A stretch of 64,000 bases of DNA from Eledone cirrhosa (GCA_964016885.1 OZ024740.1:169632001-169696000); one strand, 5' to 3'; numbered from the stretch's first letter, positions 33,308 through 54,804 are shown. Program-made: numbers and translations. The notes: generated by a model not told the origin, from the sequence alone.

Positions 33308-33835
33308 TATTGTTATACTTTGGGAGGGTCATGTTGCCAATAAGAAACACACGCACCAGTTGCGTTCACTTCAATTTATTATAATAAATTTATAAATTTA
33401 GGAATTTATAAATTTCCGGTTGGTTGGTTGGATGGTTGTTTATATATTGTCAAAGTTCTTTCGTCACATATTCTATGAGCTCTTCGGTGACTGGGGATTC
33501 TTTTCTTTGTTTTTTGTTTTTGTTTTTTTTTGCCTCTCCTTTGTTCTGTCCTACACCATCTTGTTTTTGTGTGTCACACAAAAACAAGATGGCGTAGGAC
33601 AGAACAAAGGAGAGGCACAAAAAACAAAGAAAAAAATCCCCAGTCACTGAAGAGGTCACATAATGTGTGATGAAAGAACTTTGACAATATATAAACAACC
33701 ATCTGGTTGTGGAACCAACCAACCGGAAATTTATAAATTCCTAAATTTATAAATTTATTATAATAAATTGAAGTGAAAGCAACTGGTGCGTGTGTTTCTT
33801 ATTGGCAACATGACCCTCCCAAAGTATAACAATAT
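33308..33835. repeat. ~530-bp near-perfect palindrome
   Basis: Arms are reverse complements around tgtgt-gt-cacaca at ~33573; (TA)n on the right and ~60 bp to the left. Confidence 0.92.
33643..33685 (+). ncRNA. Minimal type I hammerhead ribozyme-like motif
   Basis: gtca-CTGAAGA-g-gtcaca/tgtgat-GAAA-gaac-TT-tgac; stem I 4 bp, stem II 6 bp, 1-bp stem III with a tetraloop. Confidence 0.55.
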
Positions 33836-34277
33836 ATATATATATATATATATACATATATATATATATATATATATATATATATATATATATATATATT
33901 TATATATATATATATATAAATACCACCATGTTTACTTAGACAGTCAGATTCTTGATGATTTCGCATGAATGAAACAGTTCTAGTCCTGTAGAAGCTTTTC
34001 TATATTAAACATTTATACTCTGTTATGTATTGAATACCTTACTTACTGTGGTTACCTACGATTGAACGCGGATTAACATATCGCTCTCTCTCTCTCTCTC
34101 TCTCTATATATATATATATATATATATATATGTGTGTGTGTGTGTGTGTATGTGTGTGTATGTGTGTGTGTCAGGTGATTCCGAAGAAAACGCAAAGGAA
34201 AAAAGAGTGATCTATGTATAGAACGGAGCTATTTAATAGAAAATATGAAATATTTCATATTTTCTATATATAACAGG

Positions 34278-34343
34278 TTTGTCTGATGAACGATCCAGAT
34301 GTATATTAATATTGTCTAGGATCCAGAAACCTTTGGTAATGGA
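34278..34343 (+). ncRNA. Degenerate type I hammerhead-like motif
   Basis: CTGATGA (34283), gatcc-aga/tct-a-ggatc-type imperfect stem II, GAAA-CC-TTT-GG-TA; stem I mostly G-U pairs. Confidence 0.4.
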
Positions 34344-36202
34344 GTAGTTAAAGTTAACTATGGTGTTGTTCACTTTCTAACAATATATATATATATATAT
34401 ATATATATATATATATATATATATATATATATATATGTATATATATATATGTATATATATATATATACGCACACACATATATATATATATACATATATAC
34501 ATATATATACATATATATATATATATGTATATATATATATAGTTATGTAATAAACAACATAAGGCAATTATTTCATTTACCAGTGGTTTCTTAAAAGCAA
34601 AAAAATTTTGCTTTCAATCTTCAGAATGAAAAAATCATGGTCTGTTTATTGACGTTGGATTTTAAAAACAAAAATGCAATCTATATGAAAGTGAGGCTTG
34701 AAAAGGAAGAAGGAAAGGAAAAGTAAAATAAAAACACACATACACACACACACACAATTATATACATACACAAATATATATATATATATACATACACACA
34801 TACATACACACACACATACACACACACACACACACATATATATATGTGTATATATATACATACACATAGATATACACATACATACATACACACAGAAATA
34901 TCAACATATCCATACATACACATACATAAATACAACCACACACACACATATATATATATATATATATATATATATATATATATACACACATACACATACA
35001 TATACATACAAATATACATACACATACATACATACATACATACACATAATCATACGTATATACACGCGTACATACATACACATACATACACACATATATA
35101 CACGCATACATACGCATGCACAAAAATAGAAATATATACACACACAAATAAATATAAGAAAAAATATCTAATAATAAAAAATAAAAATGAATATAAAGAC
35201 TATTATAATATTGACAGCGATACAGGCAACAAATAAATGAACAAACACACGTGGTAAGCAATACACACAAATGCACGTACACATACATACGTAAAAATAA
35301 ATACATACACACACTCTCACACATAAATATACATATACAAATACATAACACATACATACGCATACACAATTACATACACACACACATATACATATATACA
35401 CACACATTAGCTACCTGACAGATACGTCAGGCACAGAAAGTGATTATCGCTAAATGCTGATATTGGTTAGATTATCAATATTAGTATTACTGGGGCACCC
35501 ACTGATGAATTATAGGAGCCCACTCGAATATATATCTATTGATGGTATACAAGCTCCTACATAAATTGGTATAATTTCACCCAAATTGTAGGAGTCCTAT
35601 AATGAAACGATAGCGTCCGAACACATAATTGGGAATATAATCACTTATTTACTAATGTTTGTTGAGTGAGTTGGAATTTGGCCGGAGTATCGCTAAAAAG
35701 CTTTCCCCGATATTGTATTTATTGTATATATATATATGTATATGTATATATATATATATATATATATATATATATATATATATATATATATATATATATA
35801 TATATATATATATATATATATATATATACATAACCATACAAATATACACATACATATACATACATATCACAAAAACATACAAACAAATACAAACAAACAC
35901 ATATATATGTGTGTAAAACTCATTCTTAGATAATTCATATAAACCTTATTTAACTCTAAAATATATATATATATATATATACATACACATATATACACAT
36001 ACATACATACTCACATACACATATATACCTACATACACATATATACATACACATACGTATGCATACGTACATACACACACACACACACACACACATACAT
36101 ATATAACTAAATATATATATATATGAGAAAGAACATAAATGTTATATATATATATAAAATAAAAATATTGTATAAAAAAATATAAAAAAATATTGTATAT
36201 AT

Positions 36203-36450
36203 GAAAATAAAAATAAAAATAAAAATAAAAATAAAAATAAAAATAAAAATAAAAATAAAAATAAAAATAAAAATAAAAATAAAAATAAAAATAAAAATAA
36301 AAATAAAAATAAAAATAAAAATAAAAATAAAAATAAAAATAAAAATAAAAATAAAAATAAAAATAAAAATAAAAATAAAAATAAAAATAAAAATAAAAAT
36401 AAAAATAAAAATAAAAATAAAATAAAAATAAAAATAAAAATGAAAATAAA
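36203..36450. repeat. (AAAATA)n hexamer array
   Basis: About 40 near-perfect units. Confidence 0.95.
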
Positions 36451-37002
36451 AAGTTGTGAATAAGACAAATAATAAATAAAAAAAATATATATTTAGAAAA
36501 GGGTATAAATCCTTATAGCAGATTTAGAGCACTCAACAAATTCCTGGAGCAAAAGATCAATGAAAATAATCATTAAATCACTATATGTAATGATGCATAT
36601 ACATACACCCTTATACATATATACATATACACATATATATACACATATATATATACACACACACACACACACACACACACACACACACACACACACACAC
36701 ACACACACACACACAAAAACACAACCACAGAAATGCACACACACATACAATTACGTATATATATATATATACACACACACACACATAGGAAAAAGTTTGA
36801 CCCCACGGCAGAGCTCAAACCGTTTCTGAGGATATTATACATATACACACAAAACCATTATATAAAAAAATACATATACACGCACAAATATAACACGCCC
36901 ATACACACACATTAAATCTACATATACACACATACATACATACACATATATACATACATATATATATATATATAATTATATATATATATATATATATATA
37001 TA

Positions 37003-37559
37003 TGGTGGCTGCCAACTCGTTTTCGAGTACGGCCACTACTTTATATCCATGTAGGAGAACCCCTACCGATGCGCTGAACGAGTGGGACTTTTTAGTCCAG
37101 CCAGCGACTTGAAAACTCTGGTACAAACACTACACTTGTGACAATTATTGACACATAGTGCAGGGCCCATGGTACCATGTGACGACAAGTGCAGAGAGAT
37201 CTCCAGATATAAAGCAATGCCTGTGCCGTGAAGCTTTTATAGTGAGCAAAGGCACTGCACAAAGCCAGTTCCACTCTCTTAACCAAGATGATATTTACCA
37301 AAAAGAAGAACAAGTCAACATCATTGGATACCATCAGGGTTGCAGGTGTTATATCAGAGTTTTCCTTCTCCTAGAATTCTGCCTTGACAAAGGCTAAGGG
37401 GTCATCTCTCCCGGTGATTTTGGATGGCCATTGACTCTTAAGAGCTCCTTTGCCCTTTGACAGGTTTTGTTTTTAGTCCTGCAGGATGTCCAAAGTCACC
37501 CTCCTCACCAAGAAACCTTGGTGGGGTTGCCAGTTTAGTCGCCAACTGGTGACCTGACA
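37003..37559 (-). mobile_element. ~600-bp interspersed element, copy 2 (~50-bp internal deletion near its 5' end)
   Basis: Same ends as copy 1 (plus strand tggtggctgcc...gacctgaca); inserted in (TA)n. Confidence 0.8.
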
Positions 37560-53029: not shown

Positions 53030-53273
53030 TATTAAAATAACAGATTAAAGTTTAAGCAAAGAATCGCTGCTTTCACCCTTAACGGGATCTTCTGAAACTA
53101 AAAAAAATCAATCTGTGAACGCAGCAGTAAACCAAAGTCTTCCTGACTTCCTTAGGTTGCAACGCTTTTCGAAATATTTACTTCTGTGTTCACTGATTTT
53201 TTTAGTTTCAGAAAATCCCGTTAAGGGTGAAAGCAACGATTCTTTGCTTAAATTTTAATCTGTTATTTTAATA
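53030..53273. repeat. Inverted repeat (~100-bp arms); deleted sibling at ~52490-52572
   Basis: tattaaaataacagatt...gctttcacccttaacggga versus tcccgttaagggtgaaagc...aatctgttattttaata. Confidence 0.88.
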
Positions 53274-53421
53274 TATATATATATATATAAATGTAATCTG
53301 AGTTTTTCGAATATTAACAGTAACATTCGATTCGTTTGCAATTATGCAAACAAGCCTAATTTTTATAGCCATGTCAGTAGAATGAACACTTCATTCTTGC
53401 TCTTGTGTTGTCATGCAAACA

Positions 53422-53471
53422 GAACTGCAGACACTAATGTTTCTTGGTATCACCCTTCATCAGTACAGCTC
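53422..53471 (-). ncRNA. Type I hammerhead ribozyme candidate on the Dscam pre-mRNA strand
   Basis: gagctgta-CTGATGA-agggtgataccaa-GAAA-cattagtg-TC-tgcagttc; core intact, stem II weaker. Confidence 0.6.
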
Positions 53472-53648
53472 ACTGTTCACCTGCCAAACTGTCAGAGCTA
53501 GTGAAAATATAAGCTATTTTCAAAAATACACAGTGACTAATCGGCCTAATTTGCATATTAGCAGACTGGCTGATCAGTCAGATCTGCAGATTAGCAGATC
53601 CACAGATCAGCCAGATTTGCATATCAGCAGACTGGCCAGGTGAACAGT

Positions 53649-53698
53649 GAGCTGTACTGATGAAGGGTGATTCCCAGAAACATTAGTGTCTGCAGTTT
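53649..53698 (+). ncRNA. Type I hammerhead ribozyme candidate
   Basis: gagctgta-CTGATGA-a-ggg-tgatt-ccc-a-GAAA-cattagtg-TC-tgcagttt: 8-bp stem I including G-U pairs, full core, GUC triplet, near-palindromic stem III. Confidence 0.7.
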
Positions 53699-54804
53699 TG
53701 TTCGCATGCCAACACAAGAGCAAGAATGAAGTGTTCATTCTACTGACATGGCTATAAAATTGAGGCTTGTTTGCAAAATTCGAAAAACTCAGAATAGATT
53801 TATTGTATTCAGCCATGTAGAGCGAAATCTTCTTTTTTATATATATATATTATAGAAATTGCTTCTATATTATACTCTGTATTGAGTACCTTACTTACTG
53901 AGGTTACTCCTGATTGGACCCGGGATAAACTTACACACACACACACTCACACACACACACACACATATATATATATGTATACACGTGACTTATTTTCTAA
54001 ATTAAAAGGGGCTGGAGGGTTTCAAGAATTGCACATTGACTCTTACATTTAAAGGAAAAAACGATCAGTAATACCATTTTAAAATGACCAAGAAATGTAT
54101 CGCCAAATATCAGGATAACATTTTCATCGACTTGTCTGTAGTGGTTAACGCAATGGTTAATGTAGAAGGAATGCAGAGATGTTAACTTTACGAGCGCTTA
54201 ATTGCAGCCATGGAATTATATTCTTACACAAGCAACGCACTTGGGGATTGAATATCTCATATATCACCATAAATACGATAGTATCAGTTACATACTTTTA
54301 AACGTCAAGCTTCTGCTAATGGAGCAGAGATGGCAGCAATAGTTACATATGATGAGAATATATTTGTTTGTTGTTGCTGTTTTAGCCCCAGGTCCGCTTG
54401 ATCAAACCTATGTATTATCAAAGTTATTCAAGGCGTGCCCATAAATGATATCCTAACTGCATTACGGGAGAGATCGATATGATTGCATTATTCAATGTGT
54501 TATTTTTTTCTCTGGACAATACAGTGTGACCTAAGAGATATTTGGTTGCTATTTCTAGCATTTCGCGTGGCTCTATAGAGGCTCTTTCATTGATTTGTCT
54601 GAACGTGCGCATAATGCGTGTCCTATACATTAAGGCACAGAGCATAATTATTTTATAGCACCTTTTTCATCATTATGTTCATGGATATTTTCATTATATA
54701 TTCATCGAGTTATACATCATCAAAAGCTTGATTTTTTATCATGATCAATTTATTCAATGTTATATTTTGTTCACATCATCCTTCACTTTCATCATTACAA
54801 TAAC

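Follow-up and report, generated by a model that had tools for sequence, protein, structure and literature searches.

Introduction

Penelope-like elements are recognized by an open reading frame (ORF) that joins a reverse transcriptase (RT) to a C-terminal GIY-YIG endonuclease, by inverted or partial tandem 5'-truncated copies, by an optional tail at one end, and by a type I hammerhead ribozyme near the 3' end. The inverted 5'-truncated copy, the one-sided tail and the bias for (TA)n targets have already been described (PMC8557442, Craig 2021), and the available text of that paper characterizes the Hydra clade by RWK and DKT motifs, a CxCX5C linker, CxxC and CxH motifs and no CCHH. A Penelope-like protein nicks and extends both DNA strands in vitro, two nearby RT starts bound the tail, and hammerhead cleavage is not required for integration (PMC11167929, Frangieh 2024, as far as its available text goes). 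According to the accessible parts of PMC7229834 and bioRxiv 10.64898/2026.07.22.740005, retrozymes are tandem, non-autonomous Penelope derivatives, and in those of PMC4866542 and PMC2873906 hypermutated retroelements within genomes are described for APOBEC. The subject here is a 64,000-nucleotide (nt) stretch of the Eledone cirrhosa genome (GCA_964016885.1; C1:169632001-169696000 in the 3.0-Gb assembly), hereafter the window, which has a TA/CA-rich make-up reminiscent of octopus DNA and carries seven palindromic inserts with hammerhead markers.

It is very probable that these palindromes are Penelope-type 3' ends joined at (TA)n tracts and, jointly, that the hairpin at 38058-38200 is a reverse-transcribed copy of an ADAR-edited hairpin RNA. 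The series as such is known Penelope behavior in new families. The hairpin is a well-supported genomic fossil of ADAR hyperediting, and this edited retrocopy outweighs in importance the palindrome geometry, which is textbook Penelope behavior.

A probable edited retrocopy

The putative retrocopy lies in the left arm of the largest palindrome, and consists of two segments with a hairpin in the second:

37559-37970 (-): retrocopy segment A, by alignment a putative copy of C21:18434749-18435145
37971-38307 (+): retrocopy segment B, donor C21:18434369-18434731, inverted relative to A
38058-38200 (+): hairpin of the 38076 family with 15 A>G changes relative to the donor, in both arms; partial tail to 38240

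A search with the flanks of the 38076 copy returned one near-identical locus, at C21:18.434 Mb (97%). The same locus is the best genome-wide match for three separate parts (flank, hairpin and far end), and the 80-nt 5' flank was found at C21 only among the collected loci. The two segments correspond to adjacent pieces of the donor, with 17 nt of donor missing between them and no more collinear homology in 40 kb. Since the mirror arm of the giant repeat does not have the segment at all, the window is the recipient.

Of the 143 columns of the hairpin, 15 depart from the donor, all of them as A>G on one strand and spread over both arms (the hairpin has 52 A). The surroundings are of another kind: there are 5 differences in the 87 columns of the 5' flank (one A>G), 1 in the 40 of the tail, and 19 of mixed type in segment A, including five A>G and five G>A. 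Expressed as the A>G share, this is 15/15 in the hairpin versus 4 of 23 counted in the flanks (Fisher P = 5e-7). Comparison with the family majority gives the same polarity: the window copy departs from it at 16 arm columns, of which 13 are A>G on the plus strand and none is T>C. The family majority likewise has A at 13 of the 15 changed sites, and in two of the 15 it may be the donor that changed later, from G to A. In the stem, the new bases form G-U pairs, and the cut site is altered in both copies of the ribozyme. The sequence at 38056-38202 folds far better than shuffles (z -14.8), as does the hairpin of another insert (52722-52850, z -20.2). A cluster of A>G on the same strand, restricted to a hairpin predicted to form double-stranded RNA (dsRNA), is the signature by which ADAR activity is recognized. 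The 5' neighbors of the edited sites are T (8), A (4), C (2) and G (1), and those of the unedited sites T (10), A (15), C (5) and G (7); ADAR favors a 5' U or A, avoids G and prefers young repeats, according to the available text of PMC9989829.

The segment is thus likely an ADAR-hyperedited hairpin transcript that was reverse-transcribed into the germ line. In the proposed sequence of events, a palindrome already in place would later be read through, its RNA would fold into dsRNA that hides the ribozyme and attracts ADAR, and one such edited transcript would have been copied by the same two-primer route that makes the palindromes (see below) into a TA tract of the giant repeat. The outer ends and the junction of the retrocopy fit priming on the donor plus strand; this is the A>G strand, and the host gene is on the other one. 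Copying of a single RNA by two primers would require that RNA to have been the donor plus strand. Segment A has as its outer end (~37640) the 3' end, fixed and joined to TA, of another hammerhead family (L354), which suggests, without proving, that a Penelope enzyme made the retrocopy. The original prediction had held that transcripts through these palindromes could yield long dsRNA instead of cleavage. That idea has gained DNA-level support at one copy, 38058-38200, with the amendment that the edited RNA came from the C21 donor, not from the host strand.

Sequencing contigs bear on the copy as well. Runs X1-X3 may be from the same sample as the assembly; X4, of 88 million letters, is from a different one. 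The edited left arm (38025-38144) recurs without a single difference in contigs of X1 and X2, as does the junction of segments A and B in an X1 contig.

Geometry of the palindromic inserts

All seven inverted repeats of the original prediction (at 33308, 38076, the giant repeat around 39007, 40954, 51150, 52722 and 53297) were recovered by self-comparison, and every hammerhead core, half-core or ORF marker reads away from the center of its palindrome. Apart from the 38076 hairpin, they are:

33250-33833: 33308 insert, head-to-head 3' ends of a coding element of Neptune/Nematis type; center ~33574
34540-42810: giant head-to-head insertion of Hydra type; hammerheads 34624(-) and 42659(+)
40954-41248: 40954 insert, head-to-head 3' ends of a second Hydra-type family; tail 41140-41248, right side
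51148-52450: 51150 insert, retrozyme-like, with a 531-nt tandem unit; cores 51282(-), 51813(-) and 52201(+)
52656-52850: 52722 insert, head-to-head copy of a short non-coding hammerhead family; tail left, (TA)n left, (CT)n right
53288-53840: 53297 insert, head-to-head copy of a non-coding hammerhead family; unit ~430 nt, fold point ~53637

Every insert bears a one-sided tail of 50-115 nt. These tails had been overlooked at first, and the tail-corrected true ends are 33250, 42810, 41248, 52450, 52656 and 53840. The 33308 insert has its tail (33250-33308) on the left arm only, a core at 33647(+), a mutated left copy of it, and (TA)n on both sides. In the giant repeat, the left arm (34540-39006, minus) and the right arm (to 42745, plus; tail 42746-42810) are ~95% alike outside repeats, with a long, TA/CA-rich 3' untranslated region (UTR). 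It does form an inverted repeat by pairing of its arms, but the 346-nt center (39007-39352) is unpaired and the nested inserts differ between the arms. The 51150 insert is likewise head-to-head but not a simple inverted repeat, since 1.75 tandem units on the minus strand oppose one unit on the plus strand. The 53297 insert has cores at 53463(-) and 53657(+) and its tail on the right. The 52722 insert ends in (CT)n on the right.

Hammerheads were detected with a type I descriptor, a motif test, and their support comes from motif and stem covariation, not from folding energy; single hammerheads fold no better than shuffled sequence. The descriptor passes five in the window: 42659(+), 34624(-), 53657(+), 51813(-) and 51282(-). 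Further cores can be seen at 33647(+), 53463(-), 52201(+) and 38133(+)/38125(-), either damaged or not covered by the descriptor. An Rfam scan gave no hammerhead among the matches listed, only below-threshold hairpin matches. The 40954 insert is truncated within the long stem II and the 52722 insert within the core, each leaving the half-motif GAAA-palindrome-UH; its reading as a hammerhead remnant was borne out by other genomic copies of both families, in which the whole ribozyme is present.

Families behind the inserts

Three of the inserts are, by their predicted proteins, the 3' ends of coding Penelope-like elements, two of Hydra type and one of Neptune/Nematis type, and the arms are in this way linked to Penelope-like families, as had been proposed. 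The giant insertion carries, at 38998-39567 (+), a 5'-truncated ORF with a CxCX5C linker (CSCRKPDEC) and a GIY-YIG-type endonuclease of a Hydra-type element. This endonuclease fragment has 56,980 first-look candidates in the genome; the 150 that were scored are 89-97% identical. Fuller copies (L112, L113) have frames of 715 amino acids with RWK, DKT, YRDD, CSCRKPDEC, CSLC and CPH; YRDD and VVY...YVG stand in one ORF, and no cysteines (no CCHH) lie between the two endonuclease motifs. Atlas neighbors of the protein (0.96-0.99) include GIY-YIG and RVT_1 clusters. Upstream, the 40954 family continues into another endonuclease of Hydra type, recognized by its motifs (L147: CNCTYPDNC, CKLC). Long copies of the 33308 family (L026, L030, L038, L045) run into an RT (YVDD) and a GIY-YIG endonuclease with a CX4CxxC linker and CCHH; CIDKKCITC and CTEGQC are each found in five of six long copies.

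The other four inserts are, by sequence, non-coding hammerhead families, one of them a 531-nt tandem retrozyme. The latter, the 51150 family (2,689 candidates), has a longest frame of 72 amino acids and a type I hammerhead in each unit. The 53297, 52722 and 38076 families have 1,339, 809 and 1,103 candidates, respectively, and no coding sequence was found upstream among the copies examined. In the 38076 family, two subfamilies differ in the sequence of stem I with the pairing kept (read by eye).

Orientation and TA bias in the genome

The bias seen in the window is also above chance in 1 Mb of random genome, made up of 10-kb stretches at the first 100 of 140 random positions drawn from eight large contigs. 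In this sample, the seven families have 39 insertions, of which 11 are head-to-head, none tail-to-tail and 28 single-armed. The descriptor found 72 hammerheads (14 of them from one array), versus 0 in the reversed sequence and 0, 0 and 0 in shuffles. Inverted repeats hold 41 of these, 37 facing outward and 4 inward, and the other 31 lie in none. Among neighboring hammerheads on opposite strands, 11 pairs are head-to-head (similarity at least 0.95) and one is tail-to-tail (0.83). (TA)4 lies within 120 nt on both sides of 38 of the 74 palindromes in the 100 stretches, versus 7% in controls, and on at least one side of 61 of the 74, versus 28%. CTGANGA occurs outward only in 27 of the 74 and inward only in one, and is absent from 46.

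As a separate observation, the density of type I hammerhead motifs (L221-L320), 72 or more per Mb, would by rough scaling give on the order of 10^5 per genome; they fall into more than 15 sequence types, and many have a long stem II. A large retrozyme-like insertion (L298:4269-9945) has 13 tandem 464-nt hammerhead units facing one inverted unit. Another family, at 52485-52570 and 52939-53278, is abundant and TA-flanked, with palindromic copies and two 3' ends, and the random sample of 1 Mb contains 20 of its insertions; its core is degenerate (CAGAAGA instead of CTGANGA), and it looks Penelope-type with the ribozyme lost.

Formation of the palindromes

How do the palindromes form? In six families, 24, 19, 17, 7, 7 and 17 of 29 non-window matches per family are palindromic. 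The two arms share private variants: mirrored variants number 13, 13, 8, 8, 7 and 8, against shuffled means of 4.3, 2.8, 2.6, 0.3, 1.3 and 2.8, the value for the 51150 family merely equaling the shuffle maximum. Fold points vary between copies, except where the query itself fixed the junction. These two findings make it likely that each palindrome arose as it was inserted. The 3' ends are two-peaked in all six families tested, and one tailed arm stands against one plain arm in 5/6, 4/5, 17/18, 25/26, 10/20 and 7/12 of the head-to-head copies. These fixed 3' ends and tails, together with the orientation bias, agree with the earlier proposal of one Penelope-type route at TA tracts that acts on many RNA families, a route that was already published.

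In the suggested mechanism, the enzyme of the element would prime one complementary DNA (cDNA) from each DNA strand at (TA)n. Two cDNAs from the same RNA or from sister RNAs, one per start site, would then meet at their 3' ends and be joined. Of 46 unselected arms of the 38076 family, 32 have their start 1-10 nt ahead of the core; the tally takes in both arms as well as a few duplicate loci, and some alignments may be cut short by subfamily differences. Long copies of this family carry TATAAATA ~36 nt upstream of the arm start; it is likely that the cDNAs end where transcription begins, a short way upstream of the core, with the TATA box ~36 nt earlier.

Alternative explanations

Each palindrome could instead come from a single cDNA that folds back, or from later template switching in replication beside (TA)n cruciforms. 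The private variants common to both arms count in its favor, and the commonest junction of the 38076 family does sit on a native 4-bp mini-hairpin (read by eye). A single cDNA from the inner start, however, cannot template a tail on the other arm, and the junctions of three other families have no consistent microhomology and, in many cases, inserted bases. This route is therefore unlikely, and two joined cDNAs are preferred.

The A>G cluster, for its part, might have arisen in the DNA in place, by R-loop deamination, a transcription-linked bias or chance, after a duplication at the DNA level. It is a single case, its flanks are ~5% diverged, which leaves time for mutation, and the neighbor preference is not significant. 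But 15 of 15 changes are of one type, on one strand and within the paired stem, against a share of 12% for A>G among background differences; transcription of the host gene uses the other strand; and the copy is short, half inverted and has TA at both ends. Mutation in place is improbable compared with the copying of an edited RNA.

The original prediction also spoke of hairpin elements, and the palindromes might be a class of their own, hairpin master elements of the foldback or miniature inverted-repeat transposable element (MITE) kind that spread as whole hairpins. Of the palindromic top matches of the 38076 family, 23 of 24 do have nearly the same junction, and many top matches of the 53297 family share one. 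Those queries included the junction, however, so that the matches were selected for it; among unselected copies, the fold point varied or only one arm was present, and the 38076 junction was rejected as a fixed point. Fixed terminal inverted repeats in all copies, the mark of MITEs and foldback elements, are not seen: junctions vary, the tail makes the arms unequal, and 28 of 39 random insertions are single-armed. Three of the families are ends of coding elements. A separate class, at odds with these counts and with the private variants shared by the arms, is very improbable, and the view that each palindrome was built at insertion by the Penelope route stands in its place.

That palindromes or cluster are artefacts of assembly or amplification is hardly credible: X1-X3 may come from the assembled sample and no listed piece spans a whole palindrome, but the arms differ by 2-10% and carry different nested inserts, the tails are one-sided at fixed positions across many loci, and short contigs agree at every base with the edited left arm and with the A|B junction.

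Several points weigh against the reading preferred here, in both its parts. For the retrocopy, the right-arm edits lie outside any listed unique contig, and in one X3 contig the edited arm is joined to a flank of donor type, probably an effect of graph simplification across 44 nt that both share. In favor of the retrocopy, a 701-nt contig of X4 over the donor has A>G at two of the 15 sites, with A kept at neighboring ones; it is suggestive only, as it comes from the other sample, and the kind of run, possibly RNA, is not on record. The 5' T preference of ADAR is in the expected direction, but not significant (8 of 15 edited versus 10 of 37 unedited sites, P = 0.11). Transcription, dsRNA and cleavage are all read from DNA, and the enzyme of the retrocopy is likewise presumed, with long interspersed nuclear elements (LINEs) also present. 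For the palindromes, mirrored variants could also arise by arm-to-arm conversion; the clade assignments are by motif, and a Pfam scan of the Hydra-type protein found no RT or GIY-YIG match. As for generality, the skew of G-T versus A-C was scorable in 316 of 715 inverted repeats, of which 8 had P < 0.05, no excess, and among ~617,000 scorable repeat columns the window copy was the only private cluster within a hairpin.

Ten further close matches to the edited hairpin have at most two A>G each. Other clusters of A>G or T>C (L207, L251, L259, L262 and L277) were rejected, being mostly common to other copies and outside inverted repeats. Variants rich in A>G or T>C at L251:1295-1437, L251:9555-9770 and L207:3047-3104 are common to a minority of other copies; these could be subfamilies founded by edited RNA. 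A wider claim, that tens of thousands of perfect hairpins have been seeded and that their read-through RNAs are ADAR-edited in the germ line and copied back with host flanks, is conceivable and somewhat short of probable.

Host gene and other features of the window

The inserts sit in a host gene:

7538-61321 (-): host gene with immunoglobulin (Ig) and fibronectin type III (FN3) exons, from a domain scan of window frames

The scan covered 118 of 173 candidate frames and placed Ig exons at 61139, 59152, 47507, 46917, 20591, 18573 and 17047 and FN3 exons at 14.0 and 9.6 kb, all on the minus strand; we take the gene to be Dscam/Sidekick-like. The inserts occupy two of its introns, 20.9-46.9 kb and 47.7-59.1 kb. 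With minus-strand exons on either side of the inserts, all seven are intronic and the host RNA is the minus strand. Three smaller relatives lie among them:

33931-34075 (+): single-armed copy of the 38076 family with the native upstream TATAAATA box, from self-comparison and family alignment
34170-34390 (+): further hammerhead insert with core 34283 and an inverted tail, found by core scan and missed at first
35395-35725 (+): another hammerhead insert with one arm (core 35502), within a TA tract in the giant repeat's left arm

A palindrome at 43637-43888 is centered on (TA)n and has no hammerhead core and no family match among the collected loci. Three copies of a ~560-nt non-coding element, 96-98% identical, are at 16064-16631, 36978-37545 and 41860-42428; two of them were inserted independently in opposite arms of the giant repeat, and the random 1 Mb has 16 insertions. 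A (TAAAAA)n tract at 36204-36422 in the left arm of the giant repeat is longer than in the right. Outside the palindromes, a broken non-LTR (long terminal repeat) retrotransposon at 27917-32084 (-) has an RT match (PF00078, E 2.5e-16), a restriction-like endonuclease region and a partial tandem duplication. A GC-rich fragment at 47993-48879 (+), with an RPDG motif and a C>T cluster at 48446, presumably represents the endonuclease end of a CRE-type retrotransposon.

What the retrocopy would mean

If correctly read, the retrocopy is DNA evidence that, in cells with a contribution to the germ line, a hairpin formed dsRNA, underwent hyperediting and returned to the genome along with host flanks. 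As one assembly holds both the parent and the edited copy, a genome-wide search for such pairs is a direct test of whether RNA editing feeds genome sequence, and the same search would test whether editing restrains these elements. If write-back is recurrent, hundreds of edited retrocopies should exist, there would be a standing A-to-I route into heritable DNA, and editing would double as a killer of the ribozymes of these elements.

Comparison with known systems

No report of an ADAR-edited retrocopy fixed in a host genome was found in the literature searched, most subscription papers being beyond its reach, and no paper was found there on these hammerheads in octopus. A term search of the available text of PMC7229834 and bioRxiv 10.64898/2026.07.22.740005 found no mention of inverted copies. 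The families here look new; supplements of these two papers or of PMC8557442, whose available text names few mollusc Hydra families and gives no copy numbers like those here, may list them.

In L1 twin priming, one of two non-overlapping segments of the copy is inverted. The retrocopy is alike in its two non-overlapping segments, one inverted, and in the small loss at the junction, but it has no poly(A) tail and has TA ends. The seven palindromes differ further, in that they copy the same RNA segment twice, not two different segments.

The Hydra-type families share with the described Hydra elements the RT and GIY-YIG domains, RWK and DKT, the CxCX5C linker, the lack of CCHH and a canonical hammerhead, as well as (TA)n targets, the inverted 5'-truncated copy and the one-sided tail. 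They differ in a microsatellite-rich 3' UTR of more than 3 kb and in tails of 55-115 nt rather than 30-40 nt (PMC8557442, available text). The 33308 family resembles Neptune and Nematis elements in its CX2-5CxxC linker, CCHH endonuclease, hammerhead and TA flanks, and may belong to either clade. The 51150 family is like the non-LTR retrozymes, non-coding, tandem and with a type I hammerhead in each unit, but its 531-nt unit exceeds the ~170-400 nt given in the accessible reports, and stem II is long; its mode of insertion, with a fixed 3' end, a tail and 5' inversion, is Penelope-like.

With the mechanism described for Poseidon PAc in the available text of PMC11167929, the palindromes have in common two nicked and extended strands, an AT-rich target, two RT starts that give the tail, and a ribozyme whose cleavage is dispensable. 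The head-to-head product is not modeled there; the tail counts, one tailed arm and one plain, connect the two and tie the in-vitro two-strand, two-start result to genomic products.

Retroviruses hypermutated by A>G exist. A genomic parallel to the retrocopy is found in APOBEC-edited retroelements (PMC4866542, PMC2873906, in their available parts), which also have strand-specific clusters of a single type, polarized against parent and family majority. There the change is G>A on cDNA; here, in an invertebrate, it is A>G within a hairpin, of the ADAR type, which acts on RNA.

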